Source of the DNA: a virus
DNA length: 51,545 nucleotides
Strand: one strand, 5' to 3'
Virus record (IMG/VR): IMGVR_UViG_3300045988_024116
Span: 1-51,545 of that record
Numbering within the stretch: position 1 is the stretch's first letter; every line of letters begins with the position of its first letter. The notes beneath the pieces are model-generated. The model saw nothing but the letters and a program-made list of their open reading frames with translations. It had not been told where the DNA came from and searched no databases. Positions 1 through 46,060 of the stretch are shown one piece after another. The position numbers were made by a program, and so were the translations under genes.

Positions 1-55
1 CCCCGCTGTCAAGCGACCGACCGACCAACTCACCTGCCTACCTGCCACATCCTAC
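1..55. repeat. 55-bp exact direct repeat shared with the window end (51491..51545). Either a circular-assembly overlap or terminal redundancy.
   Basis: Bases 1-55 (ccccgctgtcaagcgaccgaccgaccaactcacctgcctacctgccacatcctac) are identical to 51491-51545. Confidence 0.95.
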
Positions 56-113
56 CTAGACGCATATACGCATACCCTGACCCAGCCCGGCCCCATAAAC
101 GTGACCCGCGTCA

Positions 114-134
114 CCCGAACCCCACCCCTAACCC
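114..134 (-). other. G-quadruplex-capable tract on the minus strand (i-motif-capable on the plus strand)
   Basis: The plus strand reads CCC-gaa-CCCC-a-CCCC-taa-CCC: four C-runs with loops of 1-3 nt. It contains the 12-mer acccctaaccca, which recurs at 725..736. Confidence 0.4.
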
Positions 135-366
135 AGGACCAAAACCCATAACAAAACTTAAGTCACCCTTACCAACCTTAGCCCATCCTATGTGCCTCAC
201 ATCACATATGTGCTACAAGTCACACAACCAGTAACCTGCAATCTACCAAGAAACATTCATCAACCAACACGAACTAGCATCAACTAGCAACACACTCAGC
301 ACGCAAAGTCTCTCACGAAAATACCCCCTAATTTTTCCTACAAACAAAGTAAATTACATACCTAGC

Positions 367-498
367 AATGTAATTTCACACATAATCTATATGTAGTACC
401 CAAAAATAATAGTAATGTAAAGTACATATAAACAAGAAGATTCCTATGATAATGTAATATATGTGTATAGTATGTATATATGTATTGTATGTATGTAA
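367..498. repeat. AT-rich island with iterated AATGTAA motifs; candidate origin or protein-binding array
   Basis: Exact aatgtaa at 367..373, 414..420 and 451..457, plus the variant tatgtaa at 492..498. The motifs sit in a gtatgta/tatata-rich stretch unlike the rest of the genome. Confidence 0.45.
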
Positions 499-520
499 TT
501 GTAAATCGTGTTACGTAGGC

Positions 521-599
521 GTCAGGTGCGCGAGGAATTGCATAATTATGCGTTCGAGTGCATAGTTATGCACTCCTTCCCCTCCTGAATTGTCCTGAC
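521..599. promoter_or_regulatory. Operator-like module: two palindromic boxes TGCATA(A/G)TTATGC bracketed by an inverted repeat
   Basis: tgcataattatgc (539..551; its core 540..551 is a perfect palindrome) and tgcatagttatgc (559..571) start 20 bp apart. They are flanked by gtcagg (521..526) and cctgac (594..599). Confidence 0.5.
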
Positions 600-707
600 A
601 TTTACGCTACGCTATCTCTCACGCCCTATCACCCCCTCCAGGCTACCCACACACCACTAGCACCCTAAAACACGCTCAAACGGCCTTCTAGACCCCTTAA
701 CGACCGT

Positions 708-735
708 CCCTAGCTATCACCCCTACCCCTAACCC
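708..735 (-). other. Second G-quadruplex-capable tract on the minus strand
   Basis: The plus strand reads CCC-n9-CCCC-ta-CCCC-taa-CCC and includes the same 12-mer acccctaaccca (725..736) seen at 124..135. Confidence 0.3.
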
Positions 736-908
736 ACCAATTCCCTCGCACATGCGCACGCGTATAACATACTTTCCCCATAACAACCACTCAAGCCATA
801 AAACTATCCACATGCTGAGATGTCTAGTTCTACCCATGCGTCTTGACACCGGCCCTGTCGCACGATAACCAAACCTCAGAATGTTACCAACGACACACCA
901 ACAAACTA

Positions 909-937
909 TTGACAACCAACAAACAACGTACTATTCA
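909..937 (+). promoter_or_regulatory. Candidate sigma70-type early promoter
   Basis: TTGACA (909..914), 17-nt spacer, TATTCA (932..937). Confidence 0.35.
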
Positions 938-1009
938 CGCGCGCGTTCCTTATTCCTACCCGCTAACACCCACACTTAAACAATGTGTCCCTAATCACAT
1001 GTTTTCATG

Positions 1010-1038
1010 TTGACAACGTACTAGCGCCGTACTAATCT
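1010..1038 (+). promoter_or_regulatory. Candidate sigma70-type early promoter
   Basis: TTGACA (1010..1015), 17-nt spacer, TAATCT (1033..1038). Confidence 0.5.
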
Positions 1039-1100
1039 TTAGTTATCGGCAAGCGAGAGACAACGCAAGCCCAATGAGATGCAAGTCACAAGGTTTCGAG

Positions 1101-1129
1101 TTGACACGCTGACAACAGCGCGTTAGACT
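1101..1129 (+). promoter_or_regulatory. Candidate sigma70-type early promoter just upstream of the first plus-strand gene
   Basis: TTGACA (1101..1106), 17-nt spacer, TAGACT (1124..1129). Confidence 0.6.
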
Positions 1130-1166
1130 AGAACCAACAACAAAGCCAAACCGAAAGGTGAAACCA

Positions 1167-1379
1167 ATGATCCGTCTAACCGTTGACGATGAAGCCCGCG
1201 CCCTGTCGGCATGGGCACACGCCGAAACCTTGTACGTAGGCGAGGATGTTATCTTTGCCCCGCTTTGGGCAACGCACGTCTGGCGCGCGCTTGCGGATGG
1301 ACATCTCTACTTTGTCGGTCCTGGTGACCTTGCAGAAATGCCCCTAGGTATCAACGCAGATACCCGCGAACTCTACTGA
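1167..1379 (+). CDS. Hypothetical early protein
   Basis: The track ORF is 1158..1379. ATG 1167 lies 8 nt after GAAAGG in the conserved CCGAAAGGTGAA leader, and the GTG at 1158 is part of that RBS. Confidence 0.6.
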   Translation: MIRLTVDDEARALSAWAHAETLYVGEDVIFAPLWATHVWRALADGHLYFVGPGDLAEMPLGINADTRELY

Positions 1380-1406
1380 AAACCCACACACAGAAAGAAA
1401 ACCAAA

Positions 1407-1703
1407 ATGCGAGACACGACACATGCAACCGTGACCCAATGGACTGAATACCGTACCCCTAGCGGGCGTTGGTCCAAAGTGCGACACGATGAAACCGAGG
1501 AAGATTTTAAGCCTTACAACCTGCGCAATTTCTTTAGTGCAAAGTTTCCGGGTGAGCGGCGTGAATACGGATACTTTAGTCAGGGCTACCTACCCTACCG
1601 CGTGACTGTTCCTAGTCCCGATGGCCGCGAGCGCCACGTTTACAAGTTCGCGTATTACACAGGGCCGCGCGAAATTGTGAATTACACGTACGAAAACGAT
1701 TAG
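1407..1703 (+). CDS. Hypothetical early protein (98 aa)
   Basis: ORF track entry with an ATG start preceded by agaaagaaaacc. Tightly packed in the same orientation as its neighbours. Confidence 0.6.
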   Translation: MRDTTHATVTQWTEYRTPSGRWSKVRHDETEEDFKPYNLRNFFSAKFPGERREYGYFSQGYLPYRVTVPSPDGRERHVYKFAYYTGPREIVNYTYEND

Positions 1704-1712
1704 TTTTCAACT

Positions 1713-1763
1713 TCCCTGACTTAATGGTGAGTATAAAGCTGGGTTCAATTCCCAGTCAGGGAA
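1713..1763 (+). ncRNA. tRNA top-half mimic E1: acceptor stem, GG linker and T-arm, with no anticodon arm
   Basis: The 7-bp acceptor tccctga (1713..1719) pairs with tcaggga (1756..1762). T-stem ctggg/cccag with loop ttcaatt (1739..1755). The 19-nt linker contains GGT..GTA. A hairpin gcgac-acaa-gtcgc follows 4 nt downstream (1768..1781). Confidence 0.6.
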
Positions 1764-1813
1764 CGATGCGACACAAGTCGCACAAACAACAACAAACCGA
1801 AAGGTTAATTGAC

Positions 1814-2071
1814 ATGGCACACACGTTCAAGACGGACCCCTGGCACGTCAAGGAAGCGCGCGGGGTTGCGTGGCATCCTAGCGAGTTTCGCCGTGAGTCC
1901 TCCCTGTTCACCAAGCATCGCCGCGATATCGCTAAGCGTATCCGCGCCCGTGAACGCCGCGAAATGGACCGTATCGCGCGCGATATCAGCGCCTACGATG
2001 ACTACTATCCGACCGGCGCAACGCTGCGTGAATTCGAGACAGACACAAACAAAGACGGTTGGCAGTACTGA
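1814..2071 (+). CDS. Hypothetical basic early protein
   Basis: The track ORF is 1724..2071. ATG 1814 lies 9 nt after GAAAGG of the conserved leader. The upstream extension overlaps the E1 RNA element and is probably not translated. Confidence 0.6.
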   Translation: MAHTFKTDPWHVKEARGVAWHPSEFRRESSLFTKHRRDIAKRIRARERREMDRIARDISAYDDYYPTGATLREFETDTNKDGWQY

Positions 2072-2080
2072 CCAACCAAG

Positions 2081-2110
2081 GGGACGGCGCGGCCCAATAC
2101 GCGCCGTCCC
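2081..2110 (+). terminator. GC-rich hairpin; candidate terminator without a U-tract
   Basis: 11-bp perfect stem gggacggcgcg/cgcgccgtccc with an 8-nt loop, starting 10 nt after the stop codon at 2069..2071. Confidence 0.5.
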
Positions 2111-2134
2111 TACAACACAGAAAGACGAAAGACA

Positions 2135-2413
2135 ATGGGTATTCTGGACGATATCGACGCCGCCGCCTATGACATTATGGCGGGCCACGTTGGTGACGGG
2201 TTCCTACCTGTCGCTAAGAACTTCAACATTGCTGAGAACCGCAACCACCCGTTTGCCAATTGCCGGTTTGACGTATACTCATACACAACGCGCGTTGCAA
2301 TGGTGAACAAGAACGAAAATGGTGACTGGGAGACTTTCGAGAGTATGCGCGCGCATCCTATGAGTAGCTTTGCCGACGCAACGCTAGTGCCTGTGGTGCA
2401 CGCCACACTCTGA
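2135..2413 (+). CDS. Hypothetical protein (92 aa)
   Basis: ORF track entry; ATG preceded by agaaagacgaaagac. Confidence 0.6.
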   Translation: MGILDDIDAAAYDIMAGHVGDGFLPVAKNFNIAENRNHPFANCRFDVYSYTTRVAMVNKNENGDWETFESMRAHPMSSFADATLVPVVHATL

Positions 2414-2417
2414 CAAC

Positions 2418-2446
2418 TTGACAACAACCAACCAACAACCTACACT
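2418..2446 (+). promoter_or_regulatory. Candidate sigma70-type promoter
   Basis: TTGACA (2418..2423), 17-nt spacer, TACACT (2441..2446). Confidence 0.55.
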
Positions 2447-2499
2447 AGAAACATAGGCAAACAGCCTACCAACCAACGACAGAAAGAGAGACAACTCAA

Positions 2500-2679
2500 A
2501 TGCGAATCAACAAGGACACTATGACCGTTATCAAGGCCGCTACCGCTGCCAAGATCACGTTTAGGAAGATGGGAGCCGACTACGGCGATAATCCCAGCGT
2601 GCTTGCCGCTATTGACGCGGTGGTTACTGCCCTTGATGGCCTGTCGGATGCAGTAGTCATGTCAGAAATTGAAGCCTAA
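2500..2679 (+). CDS. Small hypothetical protein (59 aa), below the ORF-track cutoff
   Basis: Read by hand: ATG 2500 preceded by agaaagagag; translation MRINKDTMTVIKAATAAKITFRKMGADYGDNPSVLAAIDAVVTALDGLSDAVVMSEIEA; stop TAA 2677..2679. Confidence 0.55.
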   Translation: MRINKDTMTVIKAATAAKITFRKMGADYGDNPSVLAAIDAVVTALDGLSDAVVMSEIEA

Positions 2680-2700
2680 CAAAACGTTCCTAATGGAACA

Positions 2701-2749
2701 TCCCTAGCCTGTCGGTAGGTAAATGCAGGTTCAACCCCTGCCTAGGGAG
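2701..2749 (+). ncRNA. tRNA top-half mimic E2, a paralogue of E1
   Basis: The 7-bp acceptor tccctag (2701..2707) pairs with ctaggga (2742..2748). T-stem gcagg/cctgc with loop ttcaacc (2725..2741). The 17-nt linker contains GGT..GTA. A hairpin gctaacca-agg-tggttagc follows 4 nt downstream (2754..2772). Confidence 0.6.
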
Positions 2750-2795
2750 CTGAGCTAACCAAGGTGGTTAGCGACAACAATCGAGAGGTTAAACC

Positions 2796-3260
2796 ATGTG
2801 CAATGAATATGCCTACAAGCTCGCTAAGGCACTCATTTACCCTGAGCTGACTGTAGAGTTTGCCGCTGACGTTATCAACGGCTACGTTTACGGTATCGAC
2901 ATTTGGGACGAAGTTTGCACTCTCACGGGCGGATGGTGCAATGATGCTAACGTCTTTGTCGCATGGGACAAGATGGGCCGTCCCGATGAATGGGAATACC
3001 TAGACACTGACTACGATATGGAACGGGACCCTGCCCGTAGGCGCGCAATGGTCGCTAATGCTCGCATCTCTGCAATGGCTGAGTGTGTCGCAGAAGCACT
3101 AGGTTATGTTGTTAACGATATTGTCGCTAACGAGGGTTGGAAATGTGTGCCCGTGGAAGATGTGAAACAGGATATGCACGGTATTGGTTGGCTTGAGTAC
3201 GGTTGCGCCATTTTGGACGTTTACACTGAGAGTTACCTGTTTAAGCCTAGCGGAAAGTGA
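2796..3260 (+). CDS. Hypothetical protein (154 aa)
   Basis: ORF track entry; ATG preceded by gagagg. Confidence 0.65.
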   Translation: MCNEYAYKLAKALIYPELTVEFAADVINGYVYGIDIWDEVCTLTGGWCNDANVFVAWDKMGRPDEWEYLDTDYDMERDPARRRAMVANARISAMAECVAEALGYVVNDIVANEGWKCVPVEDVKQDMHGIGWLEYGCAILDVYTESYLFKPSGK

Positions 3261-3496
3261 GAACTAACATGTTGCCTAAATGGTACGGTATCCCCGATAT
3301 CGTCTTTGAGTGGCGCGGTGCTTGGAATGACCCTATGTTGCACTACAAGGGGCATGTGTTTAACGCCAATGAGATGCAAGACGGGTTGTGGGAGAACTAC
3401 CGGGAAGACCTGGAAACAGGGTATACGTCCCTTGAGTGGGAGGAATATGTCAGTGACAACGCAACTAACTACCTTGACGATGCACTATTTTTTTGA
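3257..3496 (+). CDS. Hypothetical protein (79 aa)
   Basis: ORF track entry; 4-nt overlap with the upstream stop. Confidence 0.6.
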   Translation: MRTNMLPKWYGIPDIVFEWRGAWNDPMLHYKGHVFNANEMQDGLWENYREDLETGYTSLEWEEYVSDNATNYLDDALFF

Positions 3497-3516
3497 GCGG
3501 GAGGAATGGTAACAAC

Positions 3517-3681
3517 ATGATTATGCTAGGTATTATCGGCCTTGTCGTCGCTGTTGGCCTTGTCTATATGGGCTTTAATGGTGACTCTAACCTGATATGC
3601 TATCTGGGTATCCTGGGTGGCGGGATGGTAGGACTCTGTAGCATTATGCACATTCTTTACGTAATGGGGATGGTGCGCTAA
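3517..3681 (+). CDS. Small membrane protein (two hydrophobic segments)
   Basis: The track ORF is 3493..3681. ATG 3517 follows gggagg. Sequence MIMLGIIGLVVAVGLVYMGF...GILGGGMVGLCSIMHILYVMGMV. The start is uncertain. Confidence 0.5.
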   Translation: MIMLGIIGLVVAVGLVYMGFNGDSNLICYLGILGGGMVGLCSIMHILYVMGMVR

Positions 3682-3682
3682 T

Positions 3683-4063
3683 ATGTGGGAAGAATTGCTA
3701 AGCGTCATTAGCGACCGTCACTATCCGCTAGAGTCTATGCAGGAACGCATTGCAGGGTATGTTGACCTTAAGACAGGATGGGACCTGTCGCTAATCAACC
3801 CTTGGTTTATCGAACGTGGCTATGAGTTTGTGGGACTACTTGACTTATTCTCTGAGAATGAGCCTAGCGGTTTGTACGTCAACATTAATGGGTACGTGTG
3901 GCGTTGTCGCACTAATGCCGCTGACAATAGCATTTATTGGTACTGGGAGTCCGATAGCGAGGGCATTAGCCTAGACGATATGCGGTTCCTGCATGGCTAC
4001 GCGCAAATGTTCATCTGGGACGCTGACTCACAAACTTGTGAGCTAGTTAACGTTGCAGAATGA
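3683..4063 (+). CDS. Hypothetical protein (126 aa)
   Basis: ORF track entry; the start abuts the upstream stop. Confidence 0.6.
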   Translation: MWEELLSVISDRHYPLESMQERIAGYVDLKTGWDLSLINPWFIERGYEFVGLLDLFSENEPSGLYVNINGYVWRCRTNAADNSIYWYWESDSEGISLDDMRFLHGYAQMFIWDADSQTCELVNVAE

Positions 4064-4081
4064 CTGCCAACCTGGTAGACT
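4053..4081 (+). promoter_or_regulatory. Candidate promoter
   Basis: TTGCAG (4053..4058), 17-nt spacer, TAGACT (4076..4081). Confidence 0.45.
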
Positions 4082-4117
4082 AAAAGTACAAACCAACCAA
4101 GCCGAAAGGTGAAAACA

Positions 4118-4624
4118 ATGATTCAGACACAGTTTGCACACACTGTCAACGTTCCCGATGAATGGGAGCATAACGGACACACTTTCCAAGTGTTTCATGA
4201 GGAGTGGGCAGAGTGTCCTACTGAATGGCTAGATAGCGCCGATGCACTGTGTGTCCTGGGAGGTCCTCATGGTTGCATCCTGCACCACCCCGCAAAGACT
4301 AACTGCCCTGCAATGTGGGAGTTTGACAACTTCCATGAGGAACACGGTAGGATGCCTACCCAGGAAGAATGGGCGGCGCTTTGCCCTGATTATTGGGTGT
4401 ACGTTGGTTGGCATGGGATGGATGCTGACCGTCTGTTCGCGGCCGCGTTCCGCAAGGATACGTGGACTACTGACCCTTGCGAGGGGTACGTTCACGAGTA
4501 CTCTATGTGGGCAGACGGATATGTCTGGGTTGTGTCGGACACAACCACGGGTGACTCTCTAGGGGGCATCTATGCCGATAGCGAGGAAGACGCTATCAAG
4601 GTCTATACCGAAAACTATATGTGA
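4118..4624 (+). CDS. Hypothetical acidic, Trp-rich protein; paralogue of 5601..6152
   Basis: The track ORF is 4109..4624. ATG 4118 lies 8 nt after GAAAGG of the conserved leader. The C-terminal motif YSMW..VWVVSD...GGIYADSEEDAIKVY is shared with 5601..6152. Confidence 0.65.
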   Translation: MIQTQFAHTVNVPDEWEHNGHTFQVFHEEWAECPTEWLDSADALCVLGGPHGCILHHPAKTNCPAMWEFDNFHEEHGRMPTQEEWAALCPDYWVYVGWHGMDADRLFAAAFRKDTWTTDPCEGYVHEYSMWADGYVWVVSDTTTGDSLGGIYADSEEDAIKVYTENYM

Positions 4625-4639
4625 GAACGGGAGAAAACA

Positions 4640-4927
4640 ATGATCGAAAACTGGGATACTAAGTTCTGTTTCACCGCCGACGAACTGGGAGTCGCTAAGG
4701 GTGAATACGATTACGTGACACGTAGCGGCGACCTACGTATCCGGGAAGACTTTGAGGCTATGGCCGCTGAAGCCGTGGACGACTTGCACAAGCCTATTAC
4801 CATGCTTGGTAGGACCGTCAAGGCGAGTGACATTGCTAGGGAGATGCTGAGCGACGACTGGAAGGCATATGTCAACAGTTGTATCTCACACCTAATCGCA
4901 ATGGAAGAGATTAAGGAAGTTCGCTAA
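4640..4927 (+). CDS. Hypothetical protein (95 aa)
   Basis: ORF track entry; ATG preceded by gggagaa. Confidence 0.6.
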   Translation: MIENWDTKFCFTADELGVAKGEYDYVTRSGDLRIREDFEAMAAEAVDDLHKPITMLGRTVKASDIAREMLSDDWKAYVNSCISHLIAMEEIKEVR

Positions 4928-5035
4928 TGTTCGCCGTCGCTTACTACACCCTAGTCCTACTGACTATCCTTGCCCCTGTCGGCATCTACTGCCACAACAC
5001 CGAAAAATACTACAACGAAAGTGAGAACAACAACA

Positions 5036-5374
5036 ATGACTGACATTGAAACCCTCGTCAACAAGATTAACAAGCTCAACGCAGAGATTAGCACCCTGAC
5101 CGAGGCGCGCGACGCACTCAAGGCGGAACTGTGCGCACAGTTCAACGCGGGAGACAAGATTCAGGTTGGTGACACGCGCGTGACGTTCGCTACCCGAAAG
5201 ACTATCAACGCCGCCGCTGTCGAAGCACTGCCAGCGTTTAAGAAACTGCCTAAGGCCGTGCGTGAATCAGTCTATGACAAGCCTAAGTTGAATACTAAGA
5301 AACTTGCCGCGCTTGACCTGCTTGACCTGTCGCCCGCCACTACCGTCTCGGACGTGTACGCCACATTCCGATGA
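5036..5374 (+). CDS. Hypothetical coiled-coil protein
   Basis: The track ORF is 4970..5374. ATG 5036 follows gaaagtgag. Sequence MTDIETLVNKINKLNAEISTLTEARDALKAEL. Confidence 0.55.
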   Translation: MTDIETLVNKINKLNAEISTLTEARDALKAELCAQFNAGDKIQVGDTRVTFATRKTINAAAVEALPAFKKLPKAVRESVYDKPKLNTKKLAALDLLDLSPATTVSDVYATFR

Positions 5375-5601
5375 ACTGGAGGCAATACGGGACGGGCGAC
5401 GGTGGATACACAGTTGAACAGGTTGAGGCCGTCGCCCGGTCCCTTGAAGATCATGAGCTGGTTGAATACTCAACCATGTGGCACGAGTCCGTGCGACAGA
5501 TGCGCGCCGCCGAAATTATCCACGATAATCTGGGAGTCGGCGCGGAAATTGAATTGCCTAACGGCATAAACATTTACCTAGTGAACGGGGACAACAACTA
5601 A
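5371..5601 (+). CDS. Hypothetical protein (76 aa)
   Basis: ORF track entry; ATGA overlap with the upstream gene. Confidence 0.55.
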   Translation: MNWRQYGTGDGGYTVEQVEAVARSLEDHELVEYSTMWHESVRQMRAAEIIHDNLGVGAEIELPNGINIYLVNGDNN

Positions 5602-6152
5602 TGAGCGTTGAAGTTATTGCACAACAGTTTGACGATACGTGTGTATTCAAGGCAGACAATGGAAACATTTATGTTGTCATGCGAGACACAGATGCGGTTG
5701 AACCTATTGAACTAGTCGGTAATACCGATATGTTCATGTTTGGGGACTGGTCAGACTACGACGATGAGCCTACACCCTATAGCACTGTCATGCGCTTCAG
5801 TGAAGCACATGGTGTAAGTGTGGACGGGGATATGATTGCAAGCATCCTGAGTGGCGACTACTGCAAGCACTTCAAGTTTGAGGGTTGGCAGGACTATGAT
5901 TACTACGAGGATTATGGATGTCTGTTTGTCGTCCATAAGTCCCTTGGTACCGCTGAAGAATGGTTCCACTACAGTGAGATGTGGGACGTGAACGATGTGT
6001 GGCAGGTTATTGATATGGCTAATAATGAGACTGTATCAGCTATCTATGCCGACAGTCCGCAAACTGCGATAGAACTGTTCCTGAATAAGGGTGATGGGGC
6101 ATCCCTTGAAACTATTGTTAACAATGCACGAGAGAATTGGAGCAATAACTAA
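5601..6152 (+). CDS. Hypothetical strongly acidic protein; paralogue of 4118..4624
   Basis: ORF track entry; TAATG coupling to the upstream gene. The C-terminal motif YSEMW..VWQVID...SAIYADSPQTAIELF matches the motif in 4118..4624. Confidence 0.65.
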   Translation: MSVEVIAQQFDDTCVFKADNGNIYVVMRDTDAVEPIELVGNTDMFMFGDWSDYDDEPTPYSTVMRFSEAHGVSVDGDMIASILSGDYCKHFKFEGWQDYDYYEDYGCLFVVHKSLGTAEEWFHYSEMWDVNDVWQVIDMANNETVSAIYADSPQTAIELFLNKGDGASLETIVNNARENWSNN

Positions 6153-9731: not shown

Positions 9732-10398
9732 GGAAATCTACGCGCCTATCCTTGGCTTTGGTTGGGAGAACCTTCCTAACCGCTATGTCCAGCGAGAGTA
9801 TCTTCCAATTGAAGACGGCCTCGTGACCTCGCCCAGCGGCACTGTCGTTGGTACTGGCACCCTGCCGGGTGGCAAACTGCGTCTGCTTGGAGACAAGGGT
9901 CAGGTTTGTGCTCAGCGCTGGACCGGACAGGATGAAATGCTAGTTGTTGACCCGTTCGACAACCGTGTGTTCACCGTCCCGTCTGTGGAAGACTTGAAGT
10001 GTAATGCCCGTGAGATGGTGTCGGCGCATATTAACATTGCCGATGCTAAGCCTATGGACCTGTCTATCATGTGGACGGATGACGTTGCGGGAGAGTGCGG
10101 CTTTGACGTGGCCGACATCCCTGAGCCAGATGAACTCAAGTACACCTACCGACTAAATGGTATGGCTCTGCTTGGCCTGGTCAACGATGGGGACGACAAC
10201 CTGGTTGTGTCCCGCACGTCTGTAATGTGTCGTCTGCTGCGGTACAAGGCTGGGGATAGGTTTGCGTTCCAAGGCTACCGAAAGAAGAACATGCCAGGTC
10301 TGCTGAATGACACGGGAGGTTTCTCTGACTTCGCCCGGAAGATTCTTGCGTGGTCTGAGTGTATGACTCGTGAACAGCGGGAGATTCTTTCCAAGTGA
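9715..10398 (+). CDS. Hypothetical protein (about 227 aa)
   Basis: The track ORF is 9682..10398. A likely TTG start at 9715 follows aagggagaag. The start is uncertain. Confidence 0.55.
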   Translation: MPVTIKEIYAPILGFGWENLPNRYVQREYLPIEDGLVTSPSGTVVGTGTLPGGKLRLLGDKGQVCAQRWTGQDEMLVVDPFDNRVFTVPSVEDLKCNAREMVSAHINIADAKPMDLSIMWTDDVAGECGFDVADIPEPDELKYTYRLNGMALLGLVNDGDDNLVVSRTSVMCRLLRYKAGDRFAFQGYRKKNMPGLLNDTGGFSDFARKILAWSECMTREQREILSK

Positions 10399-10802
10399 GA
10401 GAGTACATTCGAGCCGCCAGGGACGAGGCCGCTAAGTCCCGTTGTGACCGTGCTCACGTGGGGTGCGTGATCGTTGATCGAGTGACGGGACAGGTTGTGT
10501 CGCGTGCGTTCAACGAGACACCACACGGCCTTGAGCCGTGCGACACGGGAGGCCACCGGATTGTCGATGACCATTGCGTCAACACTATCCATGCTGAGCG
10601 CAACGCGATTCGACAGATGAAGGAACATGGGAGCGAGTACACGCTCTACGTGACCCACTATCCGTGTCGTGGTTGCGCGCATCTTATCTCGTCTTGCCCT
10701 GAGATCGTAGAAGTTGTGTACCTCGGGGACTACAACAATTCCAGCGAGGCGACTGCTCTCCTGAGCGGCCTGTCGAAGGGGGTTCATCGTGGGGAAGAAT
10801 AA
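10395..10802 (+). CDS. dCMP/cytidine deaminase family zinc enzyme
   Basis: Motifs HAERNAI and PCRGCA (H-A-E ... P-C-x-x-C); GTGA overlap with the upstream gene. Confidence 0.8.
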   Translation: MREYIRAARDEAAKSRCDRAHVGCVIVDRVTGQVVSRAFNETPHGLEPCDTGGHRIVDDHCVNTIHAERNAIRQMKEHGSEYTLYVTHYPCRGCAHLISSCPEIVEVVYLGDYNNSSEATALLSGLSKGVHRGEE

Positions 10803-13290: not shown

Positions 13291-15606
13291 ATGAACCTCA
13301 AAGAGTTCTTCCAAGCAGTCCTCCCAGACGGTGAAGGCTGGACACCAATCATCCTCAAGGGTCCGATGGGCGGTCTCACTAACTTCCGGTGGTTTGAGCT
13401 GCCAGCGCAGCTCGACAAGATGGTGGCATACGCCGAGGCTAACGCCGACTTGGACGTATACTACTCTCCCTTCCTTTACACCAAGCCCCCGGCCCTGTCG
13501 AACACGAGGCACGCAGCCAAAGACAACGTGACCAAGGCAGCGTGCGTCTGGGCAGACGGCGACGACTGCCCCATCGACAAACTGAAGGTCAAGCCCTCTA
13601 TCACCGTCCAGACCAGCGAGAAGCACTGGCAAGGATACTGGCTTCTTGAAGATGCCGGCGACCTGTCCAATGACATGCTCGAAGCACTCTCACGAGGACT
13701 CTACGAAGCACACAAGAACGACGGCATGGACCGAGGCTGGCCCCTGTCGAAGAAGCTCCGCGTCCCCTTCACGCACAACCTCAAGAAGGTGAAGCCCTGG
13801 GAGATTACTCTCGCTACTAACGACGAGCCTATCACCGCAGCTGAGTTCGCGGCTGAGTACCCACCTGTCGAACGTATGGGCATTGAGGAAGAAGACTTCC
13901 CCACTGACATCCCCAGCATGTTTGAGGTGTTGGGCATGGTGAATCGTAGCTACATCACGGACCTGGCTACGGACGACTCTTTCAACACCGAAGAGGACCG
14001 TAGCTCGAAGATGTACCATCTTCAGTGTGCTCTCTGGGAAGAAGGTTGTTCAATTGTTGAAGCATTTGCCGTTGTGCGTGCCACTGAGTTCAACAAGTTT
14101 GAACAAGACGGACGCGGCGACGGCTACCTATGGAAACAGATCAACCGCGACTACGCACGTTGGAAGGCAGAGCACAACGGCCCCACGGAAAACGATCTCG
14201 AAGCGACAACCCGTATCGGCTCGTCCTACCTGCTGAGTGAATCGCGTGAGCTGTCGTTGCAGGATGTTGACTTCCTACACGGGGACGAGGAAGAACCGAT
14301 GGGCCTTTTTGTTGACCAGTTCGCAGCATGGGCATCAACCAAGTCAGCAATGGCACCTAAGCAATTCCACTACGCGGGCGCTCTCGCTATCTTGTCGTCC
14401 ATGTTCGCGAAGTACGCCTTCCTCCCTACCAACGTGCAGAAGATGCCACTGAATCTGTACTTCCTGGTTCTGGGACGTACTACACAGTCCCGAAAGTCCA
14501 CGTCACTTCGCCTCGCTGAGTCCATGATGCGAGACGTGGCTGTCGGCATCGGCAGGGGGCCAGATGCGTTCATTGCACCGGAAGACTCAACAGGTGAAGC
14601 GCTGTCTACATACCTGCGTACCAAGCCGAAAGAGTCTGGTCTGTTCGCAATTGATGAGGTCCAAGACTTCTTTGCACACGCCGCCCAGAAGGGTAGCTAC
14701 ATGGCCTCGATGATGCCGTTCCTCACCAAGTCTTACGACGGCTACATCCCAGCTGTCGCACGTAAAGACAAGGGCGGCAAGGTTGCTTACCAGACTGCGA
14801 CCCCGTACTACATGACGTTCTACGGGACAGGTATTCTTGACCAGGCCGCGAAGCACCTGACGACCGAGAAGGTGGAGTCTGGCTTCACGCCCCGTTGTCT
14901 TGTCGTTATTGATGACCGAGACAAGTACATCACCTCGTCTCAGGATGTGAAGCTCGTGCAAGTGAGCGCATCAACAGGCAAGATTGAGGACAAGCAGCGT
15001 GACTTCATGCTGTCGAACCTTATCAAGTCTGTGACCAAGTTCGATGTGGCTTTCAACGCTCGCCGTGCGCAACGCATGGAGAATGAGGAAGTCCGTATCC
15101 CTGTCGAGTTTGAGCCGGGTGTGTTCGAGCGGTGGATTGAGTTCTCGGAAGAGGCAAAGGTACTGGCTGAACGACATATGCTGAACAGTCGTGAGTTGTT
15201 TCCCGGCACTGAGCGTATGACGTTCTCTGTGCTCCGCATTTCTGCGCTGCTCGCTATGTATAACGGGCCGACGACAAAGGGCACCGTCGTTGTCACAATG
15301 CGGGAAATGCTCAAGGCTATCTCGCTTGCGTCCATCTGGCTGTCTTCTAACGAGGTGTTCATCCACCACGTGAAGAACAGCAACTTCAGCAACAAGGTGG
15401 ACAAGCTCATTAACTTCGTTGCGCGCACTGACAATGGTATGGTTTCGATTCCGAAACTCATGTTGAAGTTCCAGTCTGAAATCAGCGGTATGCGTGAACT
15501 GAAGGAAATCATCACATATGCCCAGGCACGTGGAGTTATCCAAGAAGTCGTGAAGGGGAAAACAAATAACGAACGATTCATTAAGTACACGGGAGGGCAA
15601 GTATGA
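13291..15606 (+). CDS. Bifunctional primase-polymerase with a C-terminal D5/DUF3987-like helicase
   Basis: The track ORF is 13240..15606. ATG 13291 follows aaaggagag. AEP-like motifs DVYYSP, VWADGDD and SEKHWQGYW; P-loop GRTTQSRKST. Confidence 0.7.
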   Translation: MNLKEFFQAVLPDGEGWTPIILKGPMGGLTNFRWFELPAQLDKMVAYAEANADLDVYYSPFLYTKPPALSNTRHAAKDNVTKAACVWADGDDCPIDKLKVKPSITVQTSEKHWQGYWLLEDAGDLSNDMLEALSRGLYEAHKNDGMDRGWPLSKKLRVPFTHNLKKVKPWEITLATNDEPITAAEFAAEYPPVERMGIEEEDFPTDIPSMFEVLGMVNRSYITDLATDDSFNTEEDRSSKMYHLQCALWEEGCSIVEAFAVVRATEFNKFEQDGRGDGYLWKQINRDYARWKAEHNGPTENDLEATTRIGSSYLLSESRELSLQDVDFLHGDEEEPMGLFVDQFAAWASTKSAMAPKQFHYAGALAILSSMFAKYAFLPTNVQKMPLNLYFLVLGRTTQSRKSTSLRLAESMMRDVAVGIGRGPDAFIAPEDSTGEALSTYLRTKPKESGLFAIDEVQDFFAHAAQKGSYMASMMPFLTKSYDGYIPAVARKDKGGKVAYQTATPYYMTFYGTGILDQAAKHLTTEKVESGFTPRCLVVIDDRDKYITSSQDVKLVQVSASTGKIEDKQRDFMLSNLIKSVTKFDVAFNARRAQRMENEEVRIPVEFEPGVFERWIEFSEEAKVLAERHMLNSRELFPGTERMTFSVLRISALLAMYNGPTTKGTVVVTMREMLKAISLASIWLSSNEVFIHHVKNSNFSNKVDKLINFVARTDNGMVSIPKLMLKFQSEISGMRELKEIITYAQARGVIQEVVKGKTNNERFIKYTGGQV

Positions 15607-38541: not shown

Positions 38542-39564
38542 TTACTTCGATTCTACCAGCTTCACGATACCGTCAGCGTCCTGTTCGACAACCAGCTTAC
38601 CGACAATCAGCTTGCCGTTCTCATCGAAAATCGAGCACGCACCATCAAGGCGCGTCTGAGCGAGGCCAACAGCCATAGAGCCGTCCTTGGTAAGGAAGTA
38701 ATCGCCGCCCTTGTACTGCAACCACCCGGTGCGCATAGCACCGTTTTCCTCAAGGTAGTACCACTTGCCCTTGACGAGCTGCCAGCCGGTCTGCATCTGG
38801 CCCTTGTCGTTCAGGAGGAACCAGTTTTCGTCGATCTTCTGCCAGCCAGTTTCCATCTCGCCGTAGCGCGAATCGTGCATATCATGCAGGAAGTACCAGT
38901 GGCCGTCGATATGCTGCCAACCAGCCTGCAACCAACCCTTCTCGTTGGCGTAGAACCACTTATCGTTCACAGGGAACCAGCCGGTCTCGAAACCACCGTC
39001 CGAGGTACGGTACCACCAGCCACCATTCTGCGACACCCAACCCTCAGACTGAGTGATCTCAGCATCAAGGTTGTCATAGTACGCCTGAGCCTTCTTCATG
39101 TACTCGCCAGCGTACGTATCGCGCAGAGACGCAGGGCAGGCAGTCGAATAGAAGTCCGAGTGGGGGAACACGTTGACACGCCACTGCGGACGGCCAAGGC
39201 CATACGCACGACACAGGGCCGCAGTCAGGTGCGCACCTGCATCAAGCGTCGCTTCACTGATGTCCCAGCCACCCTCAGCGCCAGTGGAGTTAGCGTGCTC
39301 AATGCCAATCGAACACGAGTTAACGCCGGGGCAGTGCCAGGCCGTGTCCTTGTCGTGGACGAACTGCGCGGTGCTGCCGTCAACGTCCACGTTGTAGTGC
39401 GCAGACGTGCCATTATGGTTAAACGCTGCAAGGACACCACCATGCGACATAGCCTTGCCAGCGTTATGGTGGACGATAACACGGTCAAGTGCTCGACTAC
39501 GGCCCTCATCGTAGTTATCACACCACAGGTTGTAATCAGCGATCAGATTATGCCAGTCAGTCAC
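38542..39564 (-). CDS. Endolysin: N-acetylmuramoyl-L-alanine amidase (Amidase_2/PGRP type) plus 6-7 CW_binding_1 repeats
   Basis: A likely GTG start at 39564 follows ggagaa (the track starts at 39603). Zn-ligand pattern VIVHHNAG ... PHSDFYSTACP. C-terminal repeats GW..x..W(Y/F)Y(L/F)..G.M.TGW. Confidence 0.85.
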   Translation of the reverse strand: MTDWHNLIADYNLWCDNYDEGRSRALDRVIVHHNAGKAMSHGGVLAAFNHNGTSAHYNVDVDGSTAQFVHDKDTAWHCPGVNSCSIGIEHANSTGAEGGWDISEATLDAGAHLTAALCRAYGLGRPQWRVNVFPHSDFYSTACPASLRDTYAGEYMKKAQAYYDNLDAEITQSEGWVSQNGGWWYRTSDGGFETGWFPVNDKWFYANEKGWLQAGWQHIDGHWYFLHDMHDSRYGEMETGWQKIDENWFLLNDKGQMQTGWQLVKGKWYYLEENGAMRTGWLQYKGGDYFLTKDGSMAVGLAQTRLDGACSIFDENGKLIVGKLVVEQDADGIVKLVESK

Positions 39565-39862
39565 TATAACTTCTCCTAATCTCCCAAGGACCGAAGTCCT
39601 CATACTCGGAGATAATCATATCAGTGAACACGCGGACACCCTCTTCAGTGACATACACCTGGGGATAAGAGTTTCTACCGTTCTTATAGACACGCCAGAT
39701 ACCAAGCAGTCCTTTAGCCTTTTCCGTAGGCTCGCTAATATGCCGACCCTTCTTCAGGTATCCTTCACGACGCAGAAGCCTAACAACCTTCGTAGGGCCG
39801 ATACTAGGAATCTCCCTTCTCAGGCTCTTACCGAAATCACGCAAGCTAATTTCTTCCATCAC
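39557..39862 (-). CDS. Hypothetical DNA-binding-like protein
   Basis: 101 aa. The segment SIGPTKVVRLLRREGYLKK is HTH-like; this is a weak call. Confidence 0.4.
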   Translation of the reverse strand: MMEEISLRDFGKSLRREIPSIGPTKVVRLLRREGYLKKGRHISEPTEKAKGLLGIWRVYKNGRNSYPQVYVTEEGVRVFTDMIISEYEDFGPWEIRRSYSD

Positions 39863-45336: not shown

Positions 45337-45409
45337 GTGCTGCTACAGGACTCGAACCTGCAACCTCTGAGTCTTACTCAGTGCTCTCACCAATTTGAGC
45401 TAAGCAGCT
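45337..45409 (-). ncRNA. Aberrant tRNA-like gene (anticodon arm 2 nt short)
   Basis: Canonical D-arm (gctc-aaattggtga-gagc) and T-arm (gcagg-ttcgagt-cctgt). The anticodon arm ctgag-taaga-ctcag gives a 5-nt loop, or a 4-bp stem with loop gtaagac. There is an A1:A72 mismatch. Confidence 0.5.
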
Positions 45410-45438
45410 TGTTACCTGACCAGGGCAACCCAGCCGTT

Positions 45439-45489
45439 CGATGAGGGTGTCTTGGTCATGACACTTTGTGCTATCGAGCAAACCTCATC
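45439..45489 (-). ncRNA. Candidate 51-nt minihelix RNA in the tRNA cluster (weak)
   Basis: 7-bp terminal stem gatgagg/cctcatc, an internal hairpin tgct-cgat-agca, and the hairpin gtgtc-atgaccaa-gacac abutting the 3' strand. No canonical T-loop. Confidence 0.25.
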
Positions 45490-45497
45490 GTCAAGCG

Positions 45498-45568
45498 CTC
45501 CCAGACTAGGACTCGAACCTAGTCCGACAGGGCCAAAACCTGCCGTGCTGCCATTACACTATCTGGGA
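45498..45568 (-). tRNA. tRNA-Gln (anticodon TTG)
   Basis: Hand-folded cloverleaf: acceptor tcccaga/tctggga, anticodon stem gcagg/cctgt, loop ttTTGgc, T-arm ctagg-ttcgagt-cctag. Confidence 0.85.
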
Positions 45569-45575
45569 TTATGTG

Positions 45576-45647
45576 CTTCAGGGCCGGGAATCGAACCCGA
45601 GCCTCCGGGGCCTATACCCCAGTATGCTGCCACTACACCAGCCTGAA
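45576..45647 (-). ncRNA. Aberrant tRNA-like gene (anticodon ATA by canonical numbering, with stem mismatches)
   Basis: The D-arm gtgt-agtggca-gcat is paralogous to that of tRNA-Gln. T-arm tcggg-ttcgatt-cccgg. C7:C66 and U28:C42 mismatches; anticodon loop gtATAgg. Confidence 0.45.
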
Positions 45648-45651
45648 GCTG

Positions 45652-45723
45652 TCGGAATGGTGAGACTCGAACTCACGGCCCCCTGGTCCCAAACCAGGTG
45701 CGCTACCACTGCGCTACATTCCG
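45652..45723 (-). tRNA. tRNA-Pro (anticodon TGG)
   Basis: Hand-folded cloverleaf: acceptor cggaatg/cattccg, D-arm gcgc-agtggta-gcgc, anticodon loop ttTGGga, T-arm gtgag-ttcgagt-ctcac. Confidence 0.9.
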
Positions 45724-45887
45724 TTAGAAGGGGTGCTGTTGACTGACGAAACAAAAACCATCACACAAAAATTGTCAGCCCTAGGGTGCTACCCCGCACG
45801 TGACCCCCGTCACGGCAACCGGCACGTCCGCCTGATCAGGGCGGCAGGCGGCTATGGCCTAATCATCCAGCATCGTCCGGTGCTTGG

Positions 45888-45972
45888 TGGTCCCCTCGGT
45901 GAGAATCGAACTCACACTCCTTTCGGAACTCGATTTTGAGTCGAGCGCGTCTGCCTGTTCCGCCACAAGGGG
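45888..45972 (-). tRNA. tRNA-Leu (anticodon CAA), type II, with encoded CCA
   Basis: Acceptor ccccttg/cgagggg, D region tggcggaacaggcagacgcgc, anticodon loop ctCAAaa, long variable arm ttccgaaaggagt, T-arm gtgag-ttcgatt-ctcac, 3' a-cca. Confidence 0.85.
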
Positions 45973-46030
45973 TGTGCCTCTGAGTCGCGGCGACGATTGT
46001 TCTCAGAGGCTATTCAGTTGTTATGTGTTC

Positions 46031-46060
46031 AGTATAGGGCTGCAATTTCTAAGTTGTCAA
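46031..46060 (-). promoter_or_regulatory. Candidate promoter of the tRNA cluster
   Basis: On the minus strand: TTGACA (46060..46055), 18-nt spacer, TATACT (46036..46031). A 9-bp hairpin (45976..46010) lies between it and tRNA-Leu. Confidence 0.55.

Follow-up and report, generated by a model that had tools for sequence, protein, structure and literature searches.

The 51,545-nucleotide (nt) viral DNA analysed here (positions 1 to 51,545 of IMG/VR record IMGVR_UViG_3300045988_024116; the whole stretch is called the window) carries between two of its early genes a small structured element, E1, that looks like a transfer RNA (tRNA) without its anticodon arm. E1 is about 50 nt long and is incapable of decoding. 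It belongs to an RNA family that is almost certainly real, and its fold is maintained by selection. When the elements are compared across phages, they appear to be cis-acting processing (punctuation) signals in polycistronic messenger RNAs (mRNAs). This role is probable, with considerable room for doubt, and would involve ribonuclease (RNase) P at the 5' side and RNase E or RNase Z at the 3' side. The window itself is a siphovirus-type genome of about 51.5 kilobases (kb), with replication genes (helicase, primase, family A DNA polymerase) on the plus strand and structural genes on the minus strand.

A tRNA fold kept by compensatory change

An earlier reading made from the sequence alone (the sequence-only reading) had placed a tRNA-like element just downstream of the stop codon of open reading frame (ORF) 1407-1703. 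It described a perfect acceptor stem of 7 base pairs (bp), a canonical T-arm abutting the 3' acceptor strand and a small hairpin further downstream. All of these, the TAG stop codon included, are found in the sequence (Table 1). The same reading counted 19 nt (1720-1738) ahead of the T-arm, with a GG and no anticodon arm. The length, the GG and the missing arm hold, and we refine the segment to a 4-bp D-like hairpin followed by a 7-nt linker. A second element that it had announced, E2, is present with the same layout, and both main stems of E2 differ from those of E1 in a compensating manner. The reading overlooked one feature, the hairpins that lie directly before E1 and E2.

The E1 structure is returned by both the minimum free energy fold and the centroid fold. 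Positions 1705-1790 fold at -28.7 kcal/mol (z = -4.2) and positions 1688-1786 at -34.1 kcal/mol (z = -4.3), with 0 of 200 shuffles equally stable. The unit of hairpin, mini-tRNA and hairpin reaches -34 to -35 kcal/mol. We also searched the window with a strict descriptor requiring 7/7 acceptor pairs, 5/5 T-stem pairs, a TTCRA loop (R, purine) and 8-30 nt in between. Three sites were found, against 0.023 per dinucleotide shuffle, and the E1 match is therefore far above chance. The third site (13733-13782, minus strand), antisense within the primase gene, was rejected as a chance match; it needs G-U pairs in the T-stem, it is not scored by the covariance model described below, and it is kept in relatives because the primase gene is coding.

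E1 shares with canonical tRNAs a 7-bp acceptor stem stacked on a 5-bp T-stem, a UUCRANN T-loop, the G53-C61 pair and a D-loop-like GG. We nevertheless rejected a canonical tRNA (RF00005), as the anticodon arm is missing. As the sequence-only reading had anticipated, ARAGORN makes no call at E1, and Rfam makes none either, whether at the gathering score or at E up to 10. An antisense Rfam match at E1 to 'Plastid-ycf2' was also dismissed (23 bits against a threshold of 65.7 bits), being just the reverse-complemented T-arm.

Searching IMG/VR with the helicase gave 63 related loci (71-98% amino-acid identity). A covariance-model scan of relatives had been recommended in the sequence-only reading. 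Our model, built from 58 distinct cores, found 112 copies in the 63 loci, with the helices kept and covarying. All copies lie on the early-gene (plus) strand, 2-3 per genome and 3.5-5.5 kb upstream of the helicase. E1 scores 67 bits (E ~1e-15) and E2 63.8 bits. Within these loci, standard pairs occupy 97.1% of the alignment cells compared with 75% in shuffles, and both partners have changed at 14/16 pairs. Covariation scores 0.62, whereas slid registers reach 0.19 at most. RNAalifold, run on an independent MAFFT alignment, recovered the same three helices, with compensatory change at 13/15 pairs. A broader set that includes other lineages is 98.4% paired, with a covariation score of 0.655.

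These figures carry a circularity, in that one alignment (A1) was chosen by the descriptor demanding perfect acceptor and T-stem pairing, and two others (A2 and A3) were fitted to the model. Because the alignments were selected or fitted using structure, we ran a slot test. A homologue of the gene at 1814-2071, with enough upstream DNA, is present in 46 loci, and the element was sought within 150 nt upstream of it. It was there in 45 of the 46. These elements comprise 25 distinct sequences, and their acceptor stems are of at least 8 kinds. Thus acceptor pairs 5-7 and the T-stem retain their pairing while their sequence changes. The D-like hairpin, which lies outside the selection descriptor, covaries as well (C-G/U-A, U-A/C-G/U-G and G-U/A-U/C-G). 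The slot test and the D-hairpin pairs are the less biased part of the evidence.

The conserved single-stranded features are those of the tRNA elbow, namely the GG at the end of the small loop, present in 57/58 distinct cores, and the UUCRA T-loop. The pair that closes the T-loop (G53-C61) is present in 65/65 sequences. Within the group of ~50-kb genomes, U1-A72, C2-G71 and C3-G70 hardly vary. That the plus strand is the functional one follows from the G-U pairs and the orientation of the T-loop. These results bear out the earlier claim that the acceptor/T-arm stack and the elbow are retained while decoding is impossible, and covariation strengthens it.

Trailer, flanking hairpins and distribution

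The 3' trailer of the elements is highly constrained. We tallied 122 unique elements: 120 have a purine at position 73, all 122 have C at position 74, 114 have G or U (and just 2 have C) at position 75, and all 122 have a purine at position 76. The trailer thus reads RCGA or RCUG instead of RCCA, and a full CCA is avoided (2/122).

Elements are strictly intergenic and on the coding strand. Each belongs to a three-part module of upstream hairpin, mini-tRNA and downstream hairpin, which is followed by an A/C-rich leader, a Shine-Dalgarno (SD) sequence and a start codon. Across the family, 0-1 or 4 nt separate the upstream hairpin from nucleotide 1, and this hairpin often contains the stop codon of the preceding ORF; the downstream hairpin begins 3-4 nt after the discriminator. 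Perfect stems of at least 6 bp are found upstream of 46% of the elements, against 13% at control positions, and downstream of 49%, against 12.5%, a three- to four-fold enrichment at tight offsets. The hairpin sequences vary between phages, and the hairpin itself is retained. Elements start a median of 12 nt after the upstream stop codon and lie a median of 48 nt before the next start codon. On the plus strand, no promoter or terminator-like site was found at 1690-1790 or at 2680-2780; promoter-like sites are at 1101-1129 and 2418-2446. An intrinsic terminator was rejected, as the plus strand has no hairpin rich in guanine and cytosine (GC) with a U-run, the trailers reading CGAUG (E1) and CUGAG (E2).

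The true tRNA genes of this phage resemble the elements in their 3' ends. All five have C74, and 4/5 have no encoded CCA. One of them, tRNA-Leu(aag), is directly followed by CGACAG, an SD sequence and an ORF whose start is ~20 nt away, as in a third class of elements. Two more distant relatives of 74% identity (L049 3573-3644 and L050 3271-3342, plus strand) carry a full-length tRNA-Pro(cgg) in an early-operon intergenic slot. The slot has the layout of the elements, with an upstream hairpin holding a stop codon, then the tRNA, a leader, an SD sequence and ATG. Real and anticodon-less tRNAs can therefore occupy equivalent positions. The sole locus without an element before its homologue of the 1814-2071 gene, L006, has that gene directly after an early promoter (TTGACA-17-TAGACT). 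The element is thus absent when the 5' end of the mRNA comes from initiation, and present only when there is an upstream cistron to cut off. No phage-encoded tRNA-processing enzyme was found among the ~50 ORFs scanned.

Some further observations concern these tRNA-like genes. The real tRNA cluster begins a transcription unit (45973-46060, minus strand) with a promoter-like TTGACA-17-TATACT and then the hairpin CCUCUGAG-(17 nt)-CUCAGAGG. This hairpin ends 4 nt before tRNA-Leu(caa), an offset equal to that upstream of E1-type elements. The tRNA-Tyr (45575-45647, minus strand) has the unusual anticodon AUA and a U-C mismatch in the anticodon stem; it is called by ARAGORN, scores below the Rfam gathering score, lies 3 nt after tRNA-Pro and 6 nt before tRNA-Gln, and may be odd or degenerate. 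L049 also holds, at 954-1008, a more divergent mini-tRNA of 55 nt with a 5-bp D-like stem.

We then surveyed IMG/VR more widely by a degenerate pattern scan, whose figures are lower bounds, and scored the returned loci with the covariance model. The same architecture occurs in at least several phage lineages whose proteins show almost no similarity to those of the window. Among the matches listed, a group of GC ~60% (L073, L106, L077/L082 and L187) has 7-8 elements within ~5 kb, and in L073 and L106 these 7-8 elements amount to roughly one per intergenic gap. The matches listed also include two further element-bearing groups (GC 49% and 63%), single element-bearing contigs of 87 kb, 70 kb (GC 38%) and 34 kb, and lineages with GCGC and UCGC acceptors. 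Rfam at gathering score, run on ten loci of other lineages, matched no family to the elements and reported only one true tRNA.

The E2-type acceptor and D-hairpin sequence is shared by 28 IMG/VR contigs. It (UCCCUAG-CCUGNNGGUAGG) is near-identical across lineages with almost no common protein similarity, and either a sequence-specific partner or horizontal spread could account for this. On the 3' side of E2-type elements, the hairpin has an apical sequence, ACCA(A/U)GGUGGU, that is likewise kept across near-unrelated phage lineages (window 2757-2769, L073 ~2900, L077 ~1830, L106 ~2150). Its conservation suggests a sequence-specific role that may go beyond end protection. AAGGUGG within this apex resembles an SD sequence.

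The probable hosts can be narrowed down. GenBank contains no close relative of the window. Judged by DNA polymerase, no cultured relative exceeds 37% identity, and the best matches are Arthrobacter phages. Among species-representative genomes, true elements were found only on phage-sized contigs binned with metagenome-assembled genomes (MAGs) of uncultured Actinomyces, Rothia and Atopobium. The endolysin, which combines an Amidase_2 domain with cell-wall repeats, indicates a Gram-positive host. From the MAG binning, the DNA polymerase matches and the endolysin type, we infer that the hosts are oral Gram-positive Actinomycetota.

Candidate functions

The sequence-only reading had proposed two functions, and comparative anatomy favours one of them, tRNA-style punctuation of the early polycistronic mRNA, which we keep as a proposal. 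It is favoured because of the intergenic coding-strand position, the hairpin caps, the invariant C74 with avoidance of CCA, the interchange with a true tRNA and the absence of the element in L006. The elements retain the features by which bacterial RNase P, RNase Z and the CCA-adding enzyme recognise a substrate: a 12-bp acceptor/T stack, an elbow of T-loop and GG, and a purine discriminator followed by C74. Host RNase P would recognise the acceptor/T-arm/elbow module and cut before U1713, leaving an upstream cistron that ends in a 3' hairpin with a tail of 0-4 nt, which would block 3' exonucleases. A second endonuclease, either the RNase E of an actinobacterial host or RNase Z, would cut between the discriminator and C74 (1763/1764). 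The downstream mRNA would start with CGA and the hairpin, which would lie 3-4 nt from the new 5' end and slow 5'-end-dependent decay. The excised mini-tRNA would be a by-product, perhaps CCA-tailed like plant t-elements. The net effect would be to turn one early transcript into separately stabilised mRNAs.

Several of these steps have precedents. A 5'-terminal stem-loop within a few nt of the end reportedly slows 5'-end-dependent decay, a finding attributed to Emory, Bouvet and Belasco in 1992. RNase Z is said to require the absence of CCA (work credited to Pellegrini et al. in 2003), a need that would explain the avoidance of C75. RNase P cleaves mRNAs and phage RNAs besides tRNA, and its model hairpin substrates have been reviewed (PMC11143913). 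Mycobacterial RNase E cleaves directly 5' of C, preferably after purines, at RN↓CNU (PMC10641625), and this preference fits A72-R73↓C74 if the host is actinobacterial.

There are also points that weigh against punctuation. The upstream hairpin is often only 0-1 nt from the proposed RNase P site, which leaves little single-stranded leader for the RNase P protein. Tandem tRNAs 3 nt apart are still processed (PMC11143913), and a 3-nt spacing is also present in the tRNA cluster of this phage. In the absence of CCA, the RCCA contact with RNase P RNA would be possible only in part. Elements of the third class have no downstream hairpin. A generic processing signal has no obvious need for the near-invariant U1-A72, C2-G71 and C3-G70, and it leaves unexplained why E2-type acceptors and D hairpins are near-identical across near-unrelated lineages. 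The host, and thus the set of RNases, is presumptive, going by MAG binning, DNA polymerase relatives and endolysin type. Finally, the contigs that encode the 1814-2071 protein are all DNA metagenome assemblies and hence have no readable RNA ends.

If the mini-tRNA is excised and CCA-tailed, it might act in trans. It could be a decoy or sponge for enzymes that read acceptor ends or elbows (the MenT/AbiEii nucleotidyltransferases, or the toxSAS enzymes CapRel/FaRel2), or it could titrate host RNase P, the CCA-adding enzyme or tRNA modification enzymes. We regard such a role as unlikely, though worth keeping in view, and it is compatible with concurrent cis-processing. A decoy would account for the constancy of the elbow (GG and UUCRA T-loop) and of U1-A72, C2-G71 and C3-G70 in the ~50-kb group, and for the retention of the E2-type sequence across unrelated lineages. 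Early expression would suit it as well, as would the 2-8 copies per genome with different acceptor stems. Acceptor-end-modifying toxins are known in Actinomycetota, the probable hosts (PMC7450476, PMC10435456), and toxSAS enzymes choose tRNAs by the acceptor stem, as described in a study that employs acceptor minihelices (10.1101/2024.07.05.602228). However, acceptor pairs 5-7 and the T-stem vary freely among close relatives at one slot, which is unexpected for a mimic of one host tRNA, and the elements have neither promoter nor terminator of their own. A decoy also leaves the position-locked hairpins and the absence directly after a promoter unexplained, and plant t-elements share the conserved tRNA features without a known trans role (PMC11658184).

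The two functions could be served in turn, which we consider a somewhat slimmer prospect than a trans role as such. Punctuation would come first. The 50-mers that it releases, once CCA-tailed, would build up into a set of acceptor-stem/elbow decoys, absorbing MenT/AbiEii or toxSAS defence enzymes or hijacking RNase P and the CCA-adding enzyme. If this dual-purpose reading is true, the elements would represent a new RNA-based anti-defence class encoded in phage intergenic space. The U1-A72/C2-G71/C3-G70 end and the conserved E2-type sequence would then be recognition determinants.

It is improbable, in our judgement, that the module works uncut, as a folded roadblock or insulator that stops 3'-to-5' exonucleases, uncouples the translation of cistrons or pauses RNA polymerase. 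Its high stability (-34 to -35 kcal/mol) would suit this role, as would its strictly intergenic position, starting within ~12 nt of the upstream stop codon, and the frequent inclusion of that codon in the upstream hairpin. A roadblock, however, needs none of the canonical T-loop, the GG elbow, the 7+5 bp geometry, the invariant C74 and the avoidance of CCA. Plain GC hairpins do such work elsewhere in the operon (for example at ~2081-2111), and the interchange with a real tRNA points to the tRNA-processing machinery.

The elements could also be conserved intergenic linkers that give homology for recombination of early-gene modules, like T4-type PeSL cassettes. E2 and its hairpin are conserved between window 2680-3260 and L001 6100-6480, in contrast to the genes on either side; in L001 an additional ORF separates E2 from the counterpart of the window's upstream gene, and the downstream gene is another one. 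In the MSKTYK-type variant of the E1 slot alone, 14 different C-termini of the upstream gene are found, with element and downstream gene constant throughout the slot; over the E1 slots together, more than 14 different genes lie upstream. E1 slots occasionally carry E2-type acceptor stems, which suggests exchange between copies. Recombination needs sequence identity, yet the sequences diverge with pairing kept, including G-U pairs that are valid only on the plus strand, and the mosaicism could follow simply from the elements being conserved intergenic DNA. Linkers are thus a very unlikely primary role, and elements at mosaic junctions may serve as recombination joints in addition.

Decaying tRNA pseudogenes, attP-type tRNA fragments or chance matches can be set aside with little hesitation: the acceptor stem and T-arm of the phage tRNA-Gln, the best but weak resemblance (21 bits with the family model), make descent from a tRNA gene plausible, but in several lineages compensatory change has preserved the anticodon-less architecture in more than 120 distinct copies, chance would yield 0.023 sites per window, the elements have both acceptor strands and come in two to eight copies of one orientation, and a scan of ORFs that left out some small ones turned up no integrase domain.

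If the punctuation mechanism is right, evolution has given some phages that infect Gram-positive bacteria, probably oral actinobacteria, a minimal tRNA mimic, pared down to what RNase P, RNase Z/E and the CCA enzyme read. It would serve as a portable 'cut here' signal by which one transcript yields several hairpin-capped mRNAs. Punctuation by tRNAs would then reach beyond organelles and eukaryotic long noncoding RNAs to bacteriophages, and a natural minimal substrate would be at hand for studies of elbow recognition. The mechanism would also explain conserved intergenic sequences of viral metagenomes that tRNA finders and Rfam miss. The elements would be compact parts for operon engineering, comparable to the tRNA-spaced guide-RNA arrays of synthetic biology. 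The invariant C74 together with CCA avoidance is a sharp, testable signature of the 3' processing route.

Known systems and neighbouring features

By analogy, the known systems that would come closest in mode of action are plant t-elements, mascRNA-type modules, mitochondrial tRNA punctuation and the RNase III sites of phage T7. In animal mitochondria, as Ojala reportedly described in 1981, tRNAs punctuate transcripts, and their excision by RNase P and RNase Z frees the mRNAs. Both systems have tRNA-shaped units between cistrons, but the mitochondrial marks are decoding tRNAs and the phage elements cannot decode; tRNA-mRNA co-transcripts, of which tRNA-Leu(aag) of this phage would be one, likewise involve decoding tRNAs. 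Wilusz et al. are said to have found in 2008 and 2011 that the tRNA-like mascRNA and MEN-beta modules (of MALAT1 and NEAT1) recruit RNase P, forming the 3' end of the upstream RNA, and that RNase Z and the CCA-adding enzyme finish the small RNA. These also are tRNA-like modules in a longer transcript, with an adjacent structure that protects the upstream 3' end. They differ from the phage elements in belonging to eukaryotic nuclear long noncoding RNAs, in having a small anticodon-like stem and a triple helix rather than a hairpin, and in having no downstream cistron. Hairpins between the T7 early genes are reportedly cut by RNase III, leaving stabilising hairpins at the 3' ends (work ascribed to Dunn and Studier). 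They are a functional analogue, but they present a long irregular duplex to another nuclease, whereas the elements rely on tRNA mimicry.

Plant mitochondrial t-elements carry the motif GGTTCRANYCC, and cuts by RNase P and RNase Z at them make mRNA ends; once excised, they are CCA-tailed and modified, and not aminoacylated (PMC1920247, PMC11658184). The motif is present as GGTTCAATTCC in E1 and GGTTCAACCCC in E2. Like t-elements (Hanic-Joyce 1990; Forner 2007, PMC1920247), the phage elements combine this motif with a non-decoding tRNA-like fold and no encoded CCA, and lie within a longer transcript bordering coding regions. The t-elements, however, are scattered and individually degenerate cloverleaf remnants of organellar tRNA genes, whereas the phage elements are compact and uniform (~50 nt), with the anticodon arm cleanly absent. 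Unlike t-elements, they are maintained by covariation and have 2-8 copies per operon, position-locked hairpins and an invariant C74, and their cleavage is at present a proposal.

Other tRNA-like RNAs fit less well. The tRNA-like domains of transfer-messenger RNA (tmRNA) and of the bacterial and phage Y RNA YrlA share the acceptor stem, the T-arm, a reduced D region and the lack of an anticodon arm (PMC4201824; 10.1101/312249). Unlike the ~50-nt elements, these domains sit within larger RNAs that also carry a module, either mRNA-like or Ro60-binding. A tmRNA domain was rejected, as position 3:70 is C-G in nearly all copies and not G3:U70, and ARAGORN finds no tmRNA. YrlA or another Y RNA was rejected as well; there is no extra helix and no Rfam match at E up to 10 around E1 or at gathering score in 10 other loci. 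Phage substrates of RNase P besides tRNA include the precursor of the P1/P7 C4 antisense RNA, the phi80 M3 RNA and the T4 gene 32 mRNA (PMC11143913). These are single cases with other folds, in contrast to a multi-copy intergenic family of tRNA mimics.

Sequence searches agree with the earlier statement that no phage family of this architecture has been described. Megablast of window positions 1-6000 against GenBank phages returned nothing. When E2 together with its hairpin, and a GC-rich element, were run by blastn against the same phages, only the T-arms of real tRNAs matched. Rfam 15, GenBank annotations and the searchable literature hold no description of anticodon-less tRNA-like elements in phage operons, while an anonymous catalogue of 10,006 viral RNA motifs (PMC10690425) might include the family. 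The phage family is thus apparently undescribed. Processing elements of tRNA-like shape are known as such; here probable ones occur in bacteriophages and in a minimal, anticodon-less form.

Table 1. Positions of E1, E2 and associated features in the window
Feature	Position	Strand	Description
ORF upstream of E1	1407-1703	+	stop TAG at 1701-1703, read from the sequence
Hairpin upstream of E1	1692-1708	+	GAAAAC-GAUUA-GUUUUC; holds the TAG of ORF 1407-1703; ends 4 nt before E1
E1 mini-tRNA	1713-1763	+	acceptor stem, D-like hairpin, linker, T-arm, discriminator A1763
E1 acceptor stem	1713-1719 / 1756-1762	+	UCCCUGA/UCAGGGA; perfect 7 bp
E1 D-like hairpin	1720-1731	+	CUUA-AUGG-UGAG; 4 bp; loop AUGG ends in GG
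E1 linker	1732-1738	+	7 nt, between D-like hairpin and T-arm
E1 T-arm	1739-1755	+	CUGGG-UUCAAUU-CCCAG; directly abuts 3' acceptor strand
Spacer 3' of E1	1764-1766	+	CGA; C1764 is the invariant C74 position
Hairpin downstream of E1	1767-1782	+	UGCGAC-ACAA-GUCGCA; begins 3 nt after the E1 discriminator
SD sequence	1799-1804	+	GAAAGG; before gene 1814-2071
Gene after E1	1814-2071	+	85 amino acids; invariant Arg-rich helix KRIRARERREMxRI; follows an E1-type element in 45/46 orthologous slots
Hairpin upstream of E2	2686-2699	+	GUUCC-UAAU-GGAAC; ends 1 nt before E2
E2 mini-tRNA	2701-2749	+	UCCCUAG / CCUG-UCGG-UAGG / UAAAU / GCAGG-UUCAACC-CCUGC / CUAGGGA; discriminator G2749
Hairpin downstream of E2	2754-2772	+	GCUAACCA-AGG-UGGUUAGC; begins 4 nt after the E2 discriminator
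SD sequence	2783-2788	+	GAGAGG; 3' of the E2 downstream hairpin, then ORF 2796-3260
Endolysin	38542-39603	-	Amidase_2 domain plus choline-binding-type cell-wall repeats
Five real tRNA genes	45337-45972	-	ARAGORN calls five, Rfam four

The product of gene 1814-2071 has 142 homologues, all hypothetical. Its AlphaFold model has a mean predicted local distance difference test score of 62.7, and only the Arg-rich helix is confident. This helix recalls arginine-rich RNA-binding motifs, for instance the one in lambda N. In the unrelated GC-rich contigs L073 and L106, too, a mini-tRNA is followed by a homologue of the gene. The neighbouring early proteins have no match in Pfam, PHROG or NCBIfam.

The same early operon contains an intergenic structure of another kind, a strong GC hairpin at 2081-2111 (plus strand; GGGACGGCGCG-(8 nt)-CGCGCCGUCCC) that has no U-run and separates genes 1814-2071 and 2135-2413. 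The left end of the window (1-1100) is long, non-coding and C/A-rich, with AT-rich GTATGTAT-like repeats at ~400-500 and the paired motifs cataattatgc / catagttatgc at ~540-575; this may be where an origin or packaging region lies. The window and related contigs differ by circular permutation. A gene for a dCMP/cytidine deaminase lies among the replication genes, at 10395-10802 on the plus strand.

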